Source of the DNA: a virus
UHGV virus genome: UHGV-0138833
Reading direction: 5' to 3' (one strand)
Length of the DNA: 23,871 nucleotides
Shown here one piece after another: positions 8,890 through 20,586 of the stretch. The notes beneath the pieces are model-generated. The model was not told where the DNA came from. It did no database searches and saw only the letters and a list, made by a program, of their open reading frames with translations. Both the position numbers and the translations under genes were made by a program. Numbering within the stretch: the stretch's first letter is position 1; every line of letters begins with the position of its first letter.

Positions 8890-9087
8890 CACTCAACATC
8901 AATAACGGGGAGCTGTTTCGCATAAAACGGCTCCGAAACATCCAAGAACAGTTCTAAAGATATCAGCAGCTATATGATCATTTCAAGACCAAATATTGAT
9001 TCTGCAATTTCGGGACGTTACACTGTCTCTGCACCTTATAAAGCGGGTGCCGGGGGTCGCAGCCCGGAATTGTCAACGGCGATATAT

Positions 9088-9108
9088 GACGCGCCAGCGT
9101 CTTTTTTA
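9088..9108 (+). terminator. Short intrinsic terminator candidate in the leader of the second Rha gene (tR1-like position)
   Basis: Stem GACGC / GCGTC, loop GCCA, followed by TTTTTTA. Confidence 0.35.
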
Positions 9109-9273
9109 TCGTCCGCGCTCACGCACGCCAGAATTATGGTGGGCTGGGCAGGGGAGCCGAAAGGCTCGCCGGTCTCCGTTGACGCCGGTACTGCGAACCC
9201 TGTTCAGTCTGCCACCAGTGAGTTTCGCAGCTCCGGTGGTGGAAGTTTTCCACAGTCAACGGAGGCTGCCATC

Positions 9274-15131: not shown

Positions 15132-15491
15132 ATGCTCATAGATTTGGTTTTACCTTACCCGCCGACGGTGAACACTTACTGGCGACGCCGTGGCAGCACA
15201 TATTTTGTATCAAAAGCCGGGGAGCGTTATCGCCGGGCAGTGGCGCTTATTGTTCGCCAGCAGCGGCTGAAATTAAGCCTGTCCGGAAGGCTGGCGATAA
15301 AGGTGATTGCAGAGCCACCGGATAAGCGCCGTCGTGACCTGGACAATATTCTGAAAGCACCACTGGATGCACTGACACATGCGGGGTTGCTTATCGACGA
15401 CGAGCAGTTTGATGAAATCAATATTGTGCGCGGACTGCCTGTTCCTGGTGGTCGGTTGGGGATAAAAATCACAGAGCTGGAGTGCGCATGA
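15132..15491 (+). CDS. rusA: RusA-family Holliday junction resolvase (119 aa)
   Basis: Close resemblance to E. coli RusA as recalled: LPYPPTVNTYWRRRG..., DKRRRDLDNILKAPLDALTHAGLLIDDEQ, GGRLGIKITELE. Confidence 0.8.
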   Translation: MLIDLVLPYPPTVNTYWRRRGSTYFVSKAGERYRRAVALIVRQQRLKLSLSGRLAIKVIAEPPDKRRRDLDNILKAPLDALTHAGLLIDDEQFDEINIVRGLPVPGGRLGIKITELECA

Positions 15492-16177
15492 ATAACCAGT
15501 ATTTACAGTTTGTTCGTGAGCAACTCATTATCGCCACCGCCGATTTGAGTGGGGCAACAAAAGGTCAGCTTGAAGCCTGGCAGGAGAATGCCATGTTTGA
15601 TACAGGGCGTTACAGACGTAAAAAAATCCGGTACCGCGATAAGGTCACTGGAAAAATGGTAACGCTGGATAATCCACCGATCCCGGGAAAGCAATCGCTG
15701 GCGAAAGGTTCATCAATTGCCCTAGTCAGTCCGGTTGAGTTTTCGACATCATCATGGCGACGCGCCGTTCTGTCTCTTGAAGAGCATCAGAAGGCGTGGG
15801 TACTGTGGGTATACAGTGAAAATCCGAGTTGGGATTATCAGGTGGTCATTGCGAAATGGGCGTGGGATAAGTTTCAGGTGCATTTTGGCACCAGAAAAAT
15901 TACAGGGAAAACGCTTGAGCGTCTGAAGAAATTAATCTGGCTGGCGGCGCAGGATGTCAGGGGGAGGATTACTGGGTGTGACGTCTACCAGCGACAGGAA
16001 CTTGCCAGACTGTGTGGAGTTAAGTCAGACAACTGGAGCCACAATTATGCGCACTACTGGCGTGATATGTGCGACATTTTTAAGAACCTCGACAACGAAT
16101 CTTTGATTTATACCATGAAAACAAGATCGCAACAAAAAGCGACCTTTTCGCGGCGGGTTATTGCAAAAGTCAATTAA
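15488..16177 (+). CDS. Putative late-gene antiterminator (Q-like, about 229 aa)
   Basis: Assignment is positional: directly after rusA with an ATGA overlap and followed within about 70 nt by a terminator-like hairpin (lambda Q-PR'-tR' geometry). No sequence motif was confirmed. Confidence 0.4.
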   Translation: MNNQYLQFVREQLIIATADLSGATKGQLEAWQENAMFDTGRYRRKKIRYRDKVTGKMVTLDNPPIPGKQSLAKGSSIALVSPVEFSTSSWRRAVLSLEEHQKAWVLWVYSENPSWDYQVVIAKWAWDKFQVHFGTRKITGKTLERLKKLIWLAAQDVRGRITGCDVYQRQELARLCGVKSDNWSHNYAHYWRDMCDIFKNLDNESLIYTMKTRSQQKATFSRRVIAKVN

Positions 16178-16241
16178 ATCGCGTACATTTCGTGTAAATC
16201 TGATATTTTGCTGATTTTGTACACGATGGCAAACTAAACAA

Positions 16242-16272
16242 AGCCTGCTGCTGAGCGGGCTATCTTTTGTCG
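16242..16272 (+). terminator. tR'-like intrinsic terminator candidate downstream of the Q-like gene
   Basis: Stem AGCCTGC / GCGGGCT (7 bp including one G-U pair), loop TGCTGA, followed by ATCTTTTGT. Confidence 0.4.
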
Positions 16273-16449
16273 TAAGTTGAGCGAAAGACCATCGATTTTA
16301 CCTTGCTAAAACTATTCTGCTATTGCCGAGTTACCCTTTAGGTAATACACTCATCTTATAAAAGAAAGTGGTTGTTAGCCACATAGGTTAGGATGTGCGC
16401 ATACTTTGTTTGTGTGCTTTTTGTGTTTTATCTGTTAACGGAGGGGAGC

Positions 16450-16677
16450 ATGCCGAAATATCTAACACTTGCCGCTCGCGCGATCCTCTCACCTGAGAAG
16501 ATCATCAAAAAAATTGCAGATATAGCTTCCATGTGTGATGGAAAAGAAGCTAAGCATGAAAGTGACAAGTTTTTCATTGATAGTAATGGTTCGATGGTTT
16601 TGAATCGCAACAACGCTGATGTGCAAAAGGCTTTCGCAGCCAATATTAAGGGATTGAGTACTAAGAAGAAGGGTTAG
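16450..16677 (+). CDS. Hypothetical small soluble protein (75 aa), first gene of an AT-rich two-gene cassette
   Basis: Strong GGAGGGGAG RBS before ATG 16450 (track start 16393 lacks an RBS). AT-rich relative to flanking phage genes (visual estimate). Confidence 0.55.
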   Translation: MPKYLTLAARAILSPEKIIKKIADIASMCDGKEAKHESDKFFIDSNGSMVLNRNNADVQKAFAANIKGLSTKKKG

Positions 16678-16683
16678 TCTTCT

Positions 16684-17481
16684 ATGTGGGCTGCGCTGAT
16701 TGTTATTGTTTTAGTTTGTGGTTATCACTATACCAACTGCCATTTGCCGTCACGATACCGTCAAAGCAAAGCGATCGGTTGGAATGCATACTTTGATGTT
16801 GCACTGAAAGGTGGTGAGTTTCTCATAAGTGGTATTCTTATCGCTGCCTTATTGGTTGTTGTTCTGTACGCTGGAATGTCACTTTGGAACATTCCAGCGT
16901 ACTTGTTTGGTTGGTACGCTCCCTTTACTTTCGCCCATGACTTTCTCAAAATGCAAGTGTTTGGGTTGAGCATGTTCCCTGCTATGTCGATAGCTTTCAC
17001 TATTATTGTAAGTATCGGGAAGGCATCAGAGGCAACCAAAAACCATAAAGACCCACAAAAGCGCAAGGCTATTTTTGAAGAAATTGCGGCTCATAGTGCC
17101 GTGGAAAATATCCTTCTTGAATCAGTTGAGCGTGGATTGTTATTGTTGGTTACACTGAAGTCTCGCAAGGTCTATGTGGGGATGATTGATGAGGCACGTT
17201 TCAATCAGTTAGATACTAACACATTGGTGCTAATCCCTTTTATGTCCGGGTACAGAGATAAAGATACTCTGACTTTTTGTGTTGAGCATAATTATGTGGA
17301 CTACTACCTTAGTCAGGGTATCACATTAACTTCTGAGCCATTGTCAGTTTATCAGTTTAGGCATGTGTTGCCCTTCGATCAGATCGAATCTTTTTCGCTG
17401 TTTAATGTTGAAACATTCGAGACTTTCAAGGCAGGTATTGAAGGGAAGAAGGCCACTGAAGTACAGAATCAAACAAGTTAA
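16684..17481 (+). CDS. Hypothetical membrane protein (265 aa): about three N-terminal TM helices plus a ~150-aa soluble C-terminal domain
   Basis: Hydrophobic segments AALIVIVLVCGY, FLISGILIAALLVVVLYAGMSLW and VFGLSMFPAMSIAFTIIVSIG. No recognisable catalytic motif. Followed by a strong terminator. Confidence 0.6.
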   Translation: MWAALIVIVLVCGYHYTNCHLPSRYRQSKAIGWNAYFDVALKGGEFLISGILIAALLVVVLYAGMSLWNIPAYLFGWYAPFTFAHDFLKMQVFGLSMFPAMSIAFTIIVSIGKASEATKNHKDPQKRKAIFEEIAAHSAVENILLESVERGLLLLVTLKSRKVYVGMIDEARFNQLDTNTLVLIPFMSGYRDKDTLTFCVEHNYVDYYLSQGITLTSEPLSVYQFRHVLPFDQIESFSLFNVETFETFKAGIEGKKATEVQNQTS

Positions 17482-17500: not shown

Positions 17501-17527
17501 AAACCCGCCATTGAGCGGGTTTTTTGA
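17501..17527 (+). terminator. Strong rho-independent terminator closing the two-gene cassette
   Basis: AAACCCGC-CATTGA-GCGGGTTT followed by TTTTTG. Confidence 0.75.
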
Positions 17528-17643
17528 TGCCCGAAGTGCGGTACATTAAACGCGCTGGTAGTTATTAATATCGGTCTTTCAGCTTGCTGGCTTTTTCGAC
17601 AAGAGTTATTGGTATGTCACGTTAACCAGAAAAGGGAAAAGGC

Positions 17644-17841
17644 ATGCTAAAACAGCAGGATATGACCGAAACTGCCAGAGTGGTGTTTAATGAATTAAGC
17701 GTCACCGAACCGGCGACCGTCGGGGAAATTGCGCATAATACTTACCTTTCACGCGAACGTTGCCAGTTAATACTGACCCAGCTTGTTATGGCGGGTCTGG
17801 CAGATTATCAGTTCGGTTGTTACAGACGCCTTCCTCAGTGA
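17644..17841 (+). CDS. Small putative HTH DNA-binding protein (65 aa) upstream of the methyltransferase
   Basis: Segment ATVGEIAHNTYLSRERCQLILTQLVMAGLA resembles a winged-helix/HTH. Confidence 0.45.
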   Translation: MLKQQDMTETARVVFNELSVTEPATVGEIAHNTYLSRERCQLILTQLVMAGLADYQFGCYRRLPQ

Positions 17842-17939
17842 AGGCTTTTTTATTTGTGGTAATGGGCGGCTGGTGGGTGTTAGCGGCACCTGCCAGCCAT
17901 CTGCTCATGCGTTGGGTTCACAAGCAAACCTCAGGCCCA

Positions 17940-17958
17940 CTGCTTTGCGCAAAAGCAG
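17940..17958. promoter_or_regulatory. 19-bp palindrome just upstream of the methyltransferase start
   Basis: CTGCTTT-GCGCA-AAAGCAG, about 30 bp before ATG 17991. Confidence 0.35.
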
Positions 17959-17990
17959 AATGAGCCTATCAGAGACAGGCTTAATGATCC

Positions 17991-19040
17991 ATGCTTAATA
18001 CTGTAAAAATATCCAGTTGTGAGTTAATCAACGCCGACTGCCTGGAATTTATCCGGTCGTTACCCGAAAATTCTGTTGACCTGATAGTTACGGACCCGCC
18101 GTACTTTAAAGTGAAGCCTGAGGGCTGGGATAACCAGTGGAAGGGCGACGATGATTACCTGAAGTGGCTGGACCAGTGTCTGGCGCAGTTCTGGCGGGTG
18201 CTGAAACCTGCCGGAAGTCTTTACCTGTTCTGTGGTCATCGCCTGGCATCTGATATCGAAATCATGATGCGTGAACGCTTCAGTGTGCTGAACCATATTA
18301 TCTGGGCGAAGCCGTCCGGACGCTGGAACGGATGCAACAAGGAAAGCCTGCGGGCGTATTTCCCCGCCACAGAGCGCATTCTGTTCGCGGAACATTATCA
18401 GGGGCCGTATCGTCCGAAAGATGCCGGGTATGAGGCGAAGGGCAGGGCACTGAAACAGCATGTGATGGCCCCGCTGATTGCTTACTTTCGTGATGCGCGC
18501 GCTGCCCTGGGGATAACGGCAAAACAGATTGCAGATGCCACAGGAAAGAAAAACATGGTGCCGCACTGGTTCAGTGCCAGTCAGTGGCAGCTACCGAACG
18601 AAAGCGATTATCTGAAATTACAGTCGCTGTTTGCCCGGGTGGCAGAAGAGAAACATCAGCGCGGGGAACTGGAAAAGCCACACCACCAGCTGGTCAGCAC
18701 ATACAGTGAGCTGAACCGGCAGTATATGGAACTGCTGAGTGAATATAAAAATTTGCGGCGGTATTTCGGTGTGACGGTGCAGGTGCCGTACACCGATGTG
18801 TGGACGTATAAACCGGTGCAGTACTATCCCGGGAAACATCCGTGCGAAAAACCGGCAGAAATGCTGCAGCAGATAATCAGCGCAAGTAGTCGTCCTGGTG
18901 ATCTGGTTGCGGATTTTTTCATGGGGTCGGGTTCAACGGTAAAAGCGGCGATGGCACTGGGGCGTCGTGCGATTGGTGTTGAGCTGGAGACCGGACGTTT
19001 TGAGCAGACAGTCAGGGAAGTTCAGGATTTAATCGTTTGA
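17991..19040 (+). CDS. DNA amino-methyltransferase (probable N6-adenine, beta-class motif order; 349 aa)
   Basis: Catalytic motif IV DPPY (VTDPPYF) near the N-terminus and AdoMet motif I FFMGSGST near the C-terminus. No adjacent restriction endonuclease, so apparently orphan. Confidence 0.8.
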   Translation: MLNTVKISSCELINADCLEFIRSLPENSVDLIVTDPPYFKVKPEGWDNQWKGDDDYLKWLDQCLAQFWRVLKPAGSLYLFCGHRLASDIEIMMRERFSVLNHIIWAKPSGRWNGCNKESLRAYFPATERILFAEHYQGPYRPKDAGYEAKGRALKQHVMAPLIAYFRDARAALGITAKQIADATGKKNMVPHWFSASQWQLPNESDYLKLQSLFARVAEEKHQRGELEKPHHQLVSTYSELNRQYMELLSEYKNLRRYFGVTVQVPYTDVWTYKPVQYYPGKHPCEKPAEMLQQIISASSRPGDLVADFFMGSGSTVKAAMALGRRAIGVELETGRFEQTVREVQDLIV

Positions 19041-19089: not shown

Positions 19090-19165
19090 GGCCCTTTAGC
19101 TCAGTGGTGAGAGCGAGCGACTCATAATCGCCAGGTCGCTGGTTCAAATCCAGCAAGGGCCACCA
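19090..19165 (+). tRNA. tRNA with anticodon CAU (Ile2-like, ileX/ileZ type; Met not excluded)
   Basis: Manual cloverleaf: acceptor GGCCCTT/AAGGGCC, D-arm GCTC..GAGC, anticodon loop CTCATAA, T-arm GCTGG-TTCAAAT-CCAGC, encoded CCA. Resembles E. coli ileX as recalled. Confidence 0.8.
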
Positions 19166-19172
19166 TCACATA

Positions 19173-19249
19173 CCGCCATTAGCTCATCAGGAAAGAGCGC
19201 CAGCCTTCGAAGCTGGCTGCGCGGGGTTCAAGTCCCCGATGGCGGTCCA
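19173..19249 (+). tRNA. tRNA-Arg (anticodon UCG)
   Basis: Manual cloverleaf: acceptor CCGCCAT/ATGGCGG, anticodon stem CCAGC/GCTGG with loop CTTCGAA, T-arm CGGGG-TTCAAGT-CCCCG, encoded CCA. Confidence 0.75.
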
Positions 19250-19262
19250 TTATCTGCATCAT

Positions 19263-19339
19263 GCGTTGTTAGCTCAGCCGGACAGAGCAATTGCCTTCTA
19301 AGCAATCGGTCACTGGTTCGAATCCAGTACAGCGCGCCA
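19263..19339 (+). tRNA. tRNA-Arg (anticodon UCU)
   Basis: Manual cloverleaf: acceptor GCGTTGT/ACAGCGC (one G-U pair), anticodon stem ATTGC/GCAAT with loop CTTCTAA, T-arm ACTGG-TTCGAAT-CCAGT, G73, encoded CCA. Confidence 0.8.
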
Positions 19340-19803: not shown

Positions 19804-20195
19804 ATACATATCTGGATTATCACCGGTTACGGTAAAAAGTGATTGCTTACTGTTTTTGTGAATGGCATTGCAGCAGCCGGATAATGTCAGTGCTGGCTGA
19901 CGGTGTGCTGGTGGCGGGTGTGGTGGTTGCTGCTTTCCCGTTGCTGAAAAAGAAAACGCCAGACTGTTAGCCGGGTATCAGTTAGCGGGAGAAATTTTTA
20001 AATACTTCACAATTCAGGCGGTTGACTGTTGTCTGGTTTGCGGGGAGTTTGTTAAAAGAAACTGGCATGGTGAATCCCCCTGTGCGGAGGGGCAATCAGC
20101 GAGTAGGTATATGGGATAATCGCGGATTCAGGTGCTGGTACTGAATTCACCGGGAGGCACCCGGCACCATGCAATGGCACATAGCGCCACTCTCC

Positions 20196-20231
20196 AGCCC
20201 CTCTCCGGAGGGGCTGTTTATATTGATTTTG
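20196..20231 (+). terminator. Rho-independent terminator ending a GC-rich structured segment
   Basis: AGCCCCTC-TCCG-GAGGGGCT (8-bp stem) followed by GTTTATATTGATTTTG. A sibling hairpin CCCCT-GTGCGG-AGGGG lies at 20077-20092. Confidence 0.65.
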
Positions 20232-20250: not shown

Positions 20251-20586
20251 TTATGGACTTTGTTGTTTTAGCCCATAAGGACATATTTGCAGAGTGCAAC
20301 GGTTATTAAAGCATTCATTCAATACGTTATCTGTATTTGTAGGGCATTCCTGGCTGTTTTTGATTAAATTCCAGAATGTTTTATTGAATGGTACTACGTT
20401 GTAAATGGTTACAGGCAGCACTTTGTTATTGAGCATGATGCCTGTGTGAGTCAGTGTAAATATACTTTCAGGAGGTAAGAAAGCATCCGATTGATACCAG
20501 ATTATTAATTTTATTTTACTCCATATGACTGAAAAAGATATTCCGCATGATGGCTGGATAACTGTATCAATCACAATCCACTTCAT
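20251..20586 (-). CDS. Hypothetical protein (111 aa), very AT-rich, convergent with the preceding plus-strand unit
   Basis: Good AAGGAAA RBS about 5 nt upstream of ATG 20586. Cys-containing; no recognisable domain. Confidence 0.5.

Follow-up and report, generated by a model that had tools for sequence, protein, structure and literature searches.

A structured, two-fold leader RNA and a small winged-helix gene accompany an M.EcoGI/GII-family methylase in prophages of Enterobacterales

How does a prophage keep a toxic, promiscuous DNA methyltransferase silent in its host? The question is posed by M.EcoGI and M.EcoGII, two beta-class prophage enzymes of 349 amino acids from E. coli O104:H4 C227-11 (Murray et al. 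2018, PMC5778455), which have 333 of 349 residues in common (PMC5778455). M.EcoGII methylates adenine in any sequence context, is toxic if constitutively expressed and is not expressed in the lysogen, a silence whose cause has only been guessed at in published work (PMC5778455). In a 2025 review M.EcoGII is grouped with Mu Mom, both being toxic and silent in lysogens. Here we analyze a methylase gene of this family in UHGV virus genome UHGV-0138833, a stretch of 23,871 nucleotides (nt) referred to below as the window, which is part of a lambdoid prophage. The methylase gene is preceded by a small gene of 65 codons and, in the gap between the two, by an inverted repeat.

We find that the gap between the genes encodes a structured RNA of the sense strand, and that the repeat is embedded in its helices. 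Small protein, repeat and enzyme form one conserved cassette. As the explanation of this arrangement we favor, with moderate confidence, a cassette of the late operon in which the leader RNA would hold translation of the methylase off and the small protein would most likely act on the leader, by a logic like that of com and mom of phage Mu.

A methylase cassette with a structured leader

The methylase gene (17991..19040, + strand) encodes a protein of 349 amino acids that matches PF01555 (N6_N4_Mtase) with 152.7 bits, against a gathering cut-off of 26.7. Its DPPY motif (residues 35-38, at 18093-18104) lies N-terminal to the FxGxG motif, here FMGSG (residues 310-314, at 18918-18932), which is the order of the beta class. 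Relatives in the PDB align with residues 8-114 and 269-343 only and leave the middle unmatched. The protein is identical at 334 of 349 residues (96%), without gaps, to WP_000935536.1 of C227-11 (349 amino acids), one of the copies in that strain. Judged by its sequence, the enzyme is a member of the characterized M.EcoGI/GII family of N6-adenine DNA methyltransferases and hence already known. From the literature on this family, it is expected to be sequence-non-specific and silent in the lysogen. The initial annotation had described an orphan beta-class enzyme, and we agree: searches of the neighbors with Pfam and PADLOC found no nuclease, restriction or defense gene adjoining the methylase. 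Its neighbors are the small gene, two open reading frames (ORFs) of 94 and 265 amino acids without a match, and three tRNA genes. The suggestion that the locus is a regulated, phage-borne anti-restriction module likewise holds up. Such a role is plausible, and tight regulation can be expected from what is published on M.EcoGI and M.EcoGII, which are non-specific, toxic and silent in lysogens.

What occupies the gap between the two genes? It measures 149 nt in the window and 142-153 nt in all but one of the 34 fetched loci that have both genes intact, the exception being a Providencia locus with 134 nt. A covariance model of the leader (model R1; 143 positions, 43 base pairs) matches the window at 17854..17996 on the + strand with 123.9 bits (E=8e-26). 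It has a single match in each locus, in every case on the + strand and directly 5' of the methylase. Covariation was tested on the covariance-model alignment of 36 loci, from Escherichia to Plesiomonas. Standard pairs are formed by 93.8% of the leader cells, compared with 28-40% in slid controls, and 15 of the 43 pairs carry compensatory, two-sided changes. The observed covariation score was reached by none of 500 shuffles. G-U cells outnumber A-C cells (103 vs 19), a bias which identifies the sense strand as the strand that folds. Single-sequence folds of most leaders agree on one architecture. The leader is much better preserved than the synonymous sites of the neighboring gene: comparison of E. 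coli with either Salmonella or Klebsiella gives 77-80% identity for the leader, at a saturated synonymous divergence (pS) of 0.7-0.8.

The leader contains no reading frame that is conserved across loci. Two candidate frames were tried and rejected: a mini-ORF at AUGGGC with tandem Trp codons, as a leader peptide, ends after 7 codons in many taxa and shifts frame in Proteus, and an upstream ORF at (A/G)UGAGCC lacks a conserved start codon. Rfam 15 yields no match in 17842-17990, at gathering score or at E<=1; weak matches, isrJ-like and Trp-leader-like, fall elsewhere. Leader RNA and dedicated small protein thus appear to be new, undescribed in Rfam and in the literature searched.

The repeat that first drew attention to this gap, CTGCTTT-GCGCA-AAAGCAG (17940..17958, +), had been reported as a perfect palindrome of 19 bp. 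The repeat is real, but its 7-nt arms enclose a 5-nt centre that is not palindromic, and there is no perfect 19-bp palindrome. Could it be a chance inverted repeat in an ordinary spacer, next to a small ORF without function? Chance alone would produce about 16 repeats of the 7/5/7 type in a window of this size, and for a stretch of 149 nt P is about 0.07. By itself the repeat is therefore unremarkable, and its significance comes only from its conservation across genera. Conservation of the repeat and of the entire intergenic spacer, however, extends to at least 15 genera and comes with compensatory changes, and purifying selection on the small ORF is strong (see below). We regard an origin by chance as close to negligible.

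The leader is built from the elements P1 to P4, and a further hairpin, P0, stands at its 5' edge. P0 (17828..17855, +) is a hairpin with the stop codon of the small gene in its loop, followed by a T run (GCCTTC..GAAGGC plus TTTTTTATTT); it is terminator-like in E. coli. Its stem covaries in other genera and its U tract varies; Proteus and Providencia lack the hairpin. P1 (17862..17908, +) is a long 5' hairpin made of AUGGGC/GCUCAU plus GGCUGGUGGGUG/CACCUGCCAGCC, with a 4-nt bulge. Its two helices (1 and 2 of the alignment) are 99% and 98% paired and include 7 pairs with compensatory changes; Proteus has ACUGUAAAAGUG/CACCUUUACAGU instead. P2 (helix 3 of the alignment) is a long-range helix, defined by pairing and covariation, with 5 pairs that show compensatory changes (alignment columns 68-79 with 135-147). 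Its 5' arm (17914..17925, +) overlaps the 3' arm of an alternative helix, Alt-2, described below, and its 3' arm (17979..17990, +) is formed by the last 12 nt before the methylase AUG. P3 consists of AGGC/GCCU and, in most genera, also of CAC/GUG; the window has AUG instead of GUG. P4, the apical hairpin of the P2-P3-P4 stem, is the inverted repeat. Its arms, GCUUU/AAAGC, are almost invariant across genera; its centre changes yet keeps dyad symmetry (GCGCA, AGCGCU, UGUGCACA).

Two further observations concern these helices. A conserved C-A mismatch sits in the middle of P3 (GGCCCAC/GUGAGCC; columns 90 and 119 of alignment A6, 17937 with 17963 in the window) and is replaced by U-A only in Mixta. 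In the alternative fold, the GCCCA at this mismatch would have a perfect partner in UGGGC. In addition, 34 of the 35 leaders contain a GATC (Dam) site 1 nt 5' of the methylase ATG, at positions -5 to -2 (17986-17989 in the window). In Proteus and Providencia the facing arm of P2 contains another GATC, which may simply reflect pairing.

Two covarying folds and the methylase start

Is this one structure or two? A second set of helices can be drawn in the leader, mutually exclusive with parts of P1 and P2 (P1a and P2b). Alt-1 pairs UGGGC with GCCCA in 35 of 35 sequences, with one compensatory change. Alt-2 pairs UUCGCU with AGCGAA; one of its pairs varies among CG, UA and AU, and a second one between UA and CG. 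Column pair 53-79 of Alt-2 reads CG in 12 sequences, UA in 7, AU in 5 and UG in 4. Column 79 fits P2b badly (unpaired in 19 of 35 sequences) but shows covariation in Alt-2; columns 76 and 77 do so with the positions they face in P2b. Each fold thus has support that the other cannot explain. In constrained folding, the P1/P2 fold lies below the alternative by 4.2 kcal/mol on average and by 6.0 kcal/mol in the window.

The two folds differ at the place where ribosomes would have to start on the methylase. None of the 35 leaders has a Shine-Dalgarno (SD) sequence for the methylase: the energy of the SD-antiSD duplex averages -1.1 kcal/mol, compared with -11 to -13 kcal/mol for strong sites in the window. 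With covariation in its support, P2 takes up positions -1 to -13; the AUG itself stays unpaired. In the more stable fold, P2 would therefore hold the 12-13 nt 5' of an SD-less start in a helix, and the alternative fold would free this segment. We infer from this geometry that the leader acts on translation, with the P1/P2 fold as the probable off state.

The small protein: partner of the leader or of DNA?

What is the small gene (17644..17841, +), and does it belong to the leader? The initial annotation had proposed a helix-turn-helix-like protein of 65 amino acids. That the gene is real is borne out. The ratio of nonsynonymous to synonymous substitution rates (dN/dS) is 0.04-0.3, with saturated synonymous sites, and the ORF is intact, at 62-67 codons, in all fetched loci but one, L030, where a premature stop truncates it. 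The 65-amino-acid ORF is a real gene under strong purifying selection. The type of the protein needs to be restated: by matches below threshold it is a minimal winged helix, with three helices and a wing. The protein of the window has sub-threshold winged-helix matches (TrmB, E=0.002). Of 20 diverse family members, 13 match DprA_WH (best E=5e-6) and also TrmB, all near or below threshold. Winged-helix families alone are matched (TrmB, DprA_WH, MarR_2, HTH_20), and a profile search with the window protein and the 20 members gave no match to the Xre-type HTH_3. The family is small, with about 330-420 clusters among 5.8 billion proteins, and all those listed are from Enterobacterales; named entries are called TrmB-family or DprA-like winged-helix proteins. 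The family has no conserved Cys set: a single Cys is almost invariant, and a second is missing from Proteus and Providencia. A profile search of PDB sequences gave no meaningful match. Codons 1-7 (MLKQQDM; 17644-17664) show conservation from E. coli as far as Plesiomonas, and translation might alternatively start at Met7.

Two candidate identities for this protein were discarded. Z-alpha domains are its best size-matched structural neighbors, and by eye the residues through which they make contact (the Asn/Tyr recognition helix and the Pro-Pro-x-Trp wing) are absent. The RNA-binding protein ECs1762 of enterohemorrhagic E. coli (EHEC) is a different protein; in prophage Sp9 of strain Sakai the winged-helix protein is ECs_1779 and the methylase ECs_1780. 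Literature searches returned nothing on the small protein or the leader sequence, and neither is mentioned in the published accounts of M.EcoGI and M.EcoGII that we found.

Does the small protein bind the repeat as DNA? The initial annotation had likened the locus to controller-protein regulation of restriction-modification systems, in which case a dimer of the protein would bind the palindrome as an operator and repress or activate a methylase promoter. Like C.PvuII, C.AhdI and C.Esp1396I of type II systems, this is a small protein of the helix-turn-helix kind beside a methyltransferase, with an inverted repeat nearby. The near-invariant GCTTT/AAAGC arms around a varying, dyad-symmetric centre are what the operator of a dimer would look like. 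The nearest structural neighbors in a Foldseek search, all non-significant, are repressors (MarR, Rrf2 and ArsR), databases name a TrmB-family regulator, and a conserved promoter-like motif (described below) lies upstream of the small gene. The remaining evidence points the other way. C proteins are Xre-type, bind paired C-boxes in their own promoter and time a restriction gene; here the protein lacks an Xre-type helix-turn-helix, no restriction gene is present, and the repeat stands downstream of the regulator gene, 99 nt after its stop codon, with no second copy in the window. A consensus promoter scan found no sigma-70-like site on the + strand of 17842-17990. The repeat is unchanged in two loci that have no small gene. 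Finally, the helices in which it is nested carry compensatory changes and strongly favor G-U over A-C, which makes it part of a sense-strand RNA structure and argues against the controller model. We consider control of this kind quite improbable.

How tightly are the three parts linked? When one genome per species was scanned for the small protein, 34 loci were recovered, ranging from Escherichia to Proteus, Providencia, Mangrovibacter, Mixta and Plesiomonas. The methylase follows the small gene in 32 of these; one further locus is cut by a contig end and one is a decayed remnant. This remnant, L020 (3980-4310), has kept the small gene and the leader and lost the methylase. Searches that started from the methylase gave a complementary picture. 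All 79 assessable virus contigs of IMG/VR contain the leader; they are near-identical loci of the E. coli type only and are informative for linkage, not for covariation. Among six non-E. coli genomes fetched in the same way, the leader is present in five and the small gene in three; Pantoea, Cronobacter and Atlantibacter have both. The leader is thus bound more tightly to the enzyme than the small gene is.

This imbalance (5/6 vs 3/6 in methylase-selected loci) speaks for a serious rival explanation, in which the leader acts alone, be it as a kinetic trap, a thermosensor, an RNase-processing site or a ligand switch, for example for S-adenosylmethionine or S-adenosylhomocysteine, and the winged-helix protein does a different job, as a DNA-binding or N6-methyladenine-sensing accessory of the methylase or as a host-directed factor. 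Two covarying, exclusive folds are typical of ligand-responsive or kinetic switches, and some winged-helix domains are described in the literature as readers of N6-methyladenine in DNA. Against it, the leader matches no known riboswitch family. The tiny winged-helix family is co-inherited with the methylase at fixed spacing from Escherichia to Plesiomonas, which points to a function tied to the cassette, and where the cis copy of the small gene is lost the protein may act in trans, since genomes usually hold several copies of the cassette. On balance a leader that acts alone appears rather unlikely.

We therefore return to a small protein that acts on the leader, for which the invariant arms of the P4 hairpin would be the obvious candidate site: such invariance fits a sequence-specific binding site, and the winged-helix protein is the candidate to occupy it. 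Several observations weigh against this reading. Winged-helix proteins usually bind double-stranded DNA. The AlphaFold2 model of the protein, three helices and a C-terminal wing of low confidence, is poor (predicted local distance difference test score, pLDDT, 60), and Foldseek against the PDB gave nothing below E=0.18, that is, no significant structural neighbor. The peptide RCQLILTQL was one of two search patterns used to find loci, and its invariance is partly an artefact of selection. The P4 arms hardly vary and so neither support nor contradict pairing. In Kosakonia (L122, 1330-1506) and Trabulsiella (L124, 1305-1506), leader and methylase are kept and the small gene is lost; Erwinia endophytica (L120, 2580-3000) has neither small gene nor leader and keeps only the last ~14 nt before the ATG. 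The small protein is thus not indispensable in cis. The computed unpaired probability of positions -13 to +3 is 0.33-0.34, not much less accessible than the leader as a whole (0.37), so that occlusion of the start region rests on covariation and not on thermodynamic prediction.

A bolder formulation goes one step further. The leader would represent a new class of two-state translational RNA switch, and the winged-helix protein would be its effector at the GCUUU/AAAGC hairpin, gating a promiscuous, toxic methylase carried by most E. coli prophage complements, in convergence with Com and mom of Mu and with unrelated parts. We offer this tentatively, as a possibility that falls short of the probable.

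Prophage setting and precedents

When would the cassette be expressed? The gene of the late-gene antiterminator Q (15482..16177, +; PF06323 Phage_antiter_Q, E=1.5e-83), annotated as antitermination protein Q in a near-identical RefSeq locus, marks the start of the late operon that contains the methylase cassette. In the loci whose neighbors were examined, the cassette always lies between a Q antiterminator and the holin/endolysin (lysis) genes, and the Q gene upstream belongs to at least three families (PF06323, PF03589, PF06530). Just 3' of Q, a terminator-like hairpin (16242-16261) overlaps a weak isrJ-like match (16193-16263) and may be the tR' of the short PR'-tR' transcript of this phage. 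A strong intrinsic terminator (17501..17528, +), a perfect 8-bp inverted repeat, AAACCCGC / GCGGGTTT, followed by TTTTTT, forms the left edge of the conserved cassette; a terminator precedes the small gene in every related locus, with a different sequence each time.

Between this terminator and the small gene lies the promoter-like motif (17583..17619, +), a bipartite cTTGCTG-N17-TAYNNG..TGTRTGTCA. It is conserved from E. coli to Plesiomonas, with a 17-nt spacer that is free of indels and not conserved in sequence, and in every genus examined it follows the terminator and stands 25-60 nt before the small gene. Its -35 would be TTGCTG and its -10 lacks the final T; the consensus promoter scan did not flag it. 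From its sequence it may be a weak promoter of the cassette. Readings of the motif as a LexA box, a sigma-54 site or a CII-type site were dropped on inspection by eye.

On the reading we favor, these parts would work together as follows. The winged-helix gene and the methylase would form a single transcription unit. Transcription from PR' would reach the cassette only when Q allows read-through of the terminators that flank the small gene. Transcripts that leak through in the lysogen would not lead to translation of the toxic methylase, with the leader in its more stable fold; the 65-amino-acid winged-helix protein, co-inherited with the leader, would most likely act on it. The methylase would then be made only in lytic growth, and the DNA of progeny phage would be broadly methylated as an anti-restriction measure.

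The surroundings of the cassette are those of lambdoid and Shiga toxin (Stx) phages. Two ORFs on the + strand, of 94 and 265 amino acids (16393-17481), lie between Q/tR' and the cassette and have no Pfam or PADLOC match; the N-terminal half of the larger product appears hydrophobic by eye. In phage phiP27 this slot holds a gene for a GIY-YIG nuclease, and in C227-11 it is empty. The slot is a variable moron site. On the other side of the cassette, as in Stx phages, is a tRNA cluster, ileZ-argN-argO (19090..19339, +; ARAGORN and Rfam; tRNA-Ile, tRNA-Arg and tRNA-Arg in RefSeq). ARAGORN calls the first gene (19090-19165) tRNA-Met (CAT), and RefSeq calls the same gene tRNA-Ile (ileZ). The CAU anticodon of ileZ reads Ile codons after lysidine modification. 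The tRNAs are followed by a strong match to the small RNA STnc100 (132 bits, 20036-20225), which adjoins an iraM-like ORF on the minus strand (20251-20586). In EHEC prophages, anti-sRNAs such as AgvB and AsxR have been reported from this region. The lysis genes are 3' of this stretch. In the early region, two matches at Rfam gathering score, isrK (9031-9107) and C4 antisense RNA (9132-9219), stand side by side on the + strand.

Which known systems does the cassette resemble? The C227-11 copy with 96% identity sits at the corresponding place in its prophage and has the same small gene, the leader and the tRNAs next to it. The enzyme shares length and motif order with M.EcoGI and M.EcoGII; activity has been reported for M.EcoGII, whereas the allele of the window is known as a DNA sequence. 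The position is the PR'/Q moron slot of lambdoid and Stx phages, the place of stx, tRNAs and other morons, where late expression antiterminated by Q is to be expected. What sets the cassette apart there is that it brings along flanking terminators, a conserved promoter-like motif and a leader of its own.

The best fit as a functional precedent is the com-mom switch of Mu (Hattman; Wulczyn and Kahmann; PMC6483171), to which the cassette would be an analogue, not a member of the same group. In both, a gene of about 62-65 codons lies directly upstream of the gene for a toxic, late, adenine-modifying anti-restriction enzyme, and the mRNA is structured at the enzyme's start region, with an adjoining hairpin as candidate site for the protein. 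The parts differ. Com is a CCCC zinc finger, whereas the protein of the window is a winged helix without homology to Com, and Mom is not a methyltransferase that uses S-adenosylmethionine. The RNA of the window is much larger (143 nt, two folds). The com and mom genes overlap, and the two genes here do not. Transcription of mom is controlled through C and Dam/OxyR, that of the cassette would be controlled through read-through by Q. Com binds RNA; for the winged-helix protein RNA binding is a candidate function.

A second precedent comes from Mu-like prophages, where genes homologous to com, together with putative binding sites, lie in front of alpha-class non-specific adenine methylases (PMC3299994). 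These enzymes, Hin1523, Nma1821 and Hia5 (Drozdz et al. 2012, PMC3299994), are likewise non-specific, silent in the lysogen and encoded behind a small regulator gene with putative 5' RNA elements. They differ from the cassette in being alpha-class, in having com homologues and in belonging to Mu-like and not lambdoid phages, and no part of them is related in sequence to a part of the cassette.

How widespread is the arrangement? Matches to the 1.9-kb stretch that begins with the upstream terminator and reaches the tRNAs occur in 292 phage records, the majority of them from Stx2-converting phages. The best of these is phage 1720a-02 (93%), a phage which the authors of the M.EcoGII study had named as carrier of a very similar enzyme (1720A-02 in PMC5778455). 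The same stretch matches 3305 of 5426 complete E. coli genomes, with at least 80% of the query covered in 1753, and E. coli genomes have a median of 2 matching places each. The cassette is therefore common in E. coli, including the region of Stx phages just upstream of the toxin genes. Methylome surveys are blind to a non-specific enzyme that is silent in the lysogen, and an absent motif says nothing about its function. Homologues in O111 Shiga toxin-producing E. coli, listed as non-specific, left no methylome signal. M.EcoGII is a widely used laboratory enzyme. With a leader of two folds and a co-inherited small protein at hand, the question of how M.EcoGI and M.EcoGII are silenced becomes a set of defined experiments. 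If the proposed mechanism is true, the leader would be a new cis-regulatory RNA motif for the phages of Enterobacterales.

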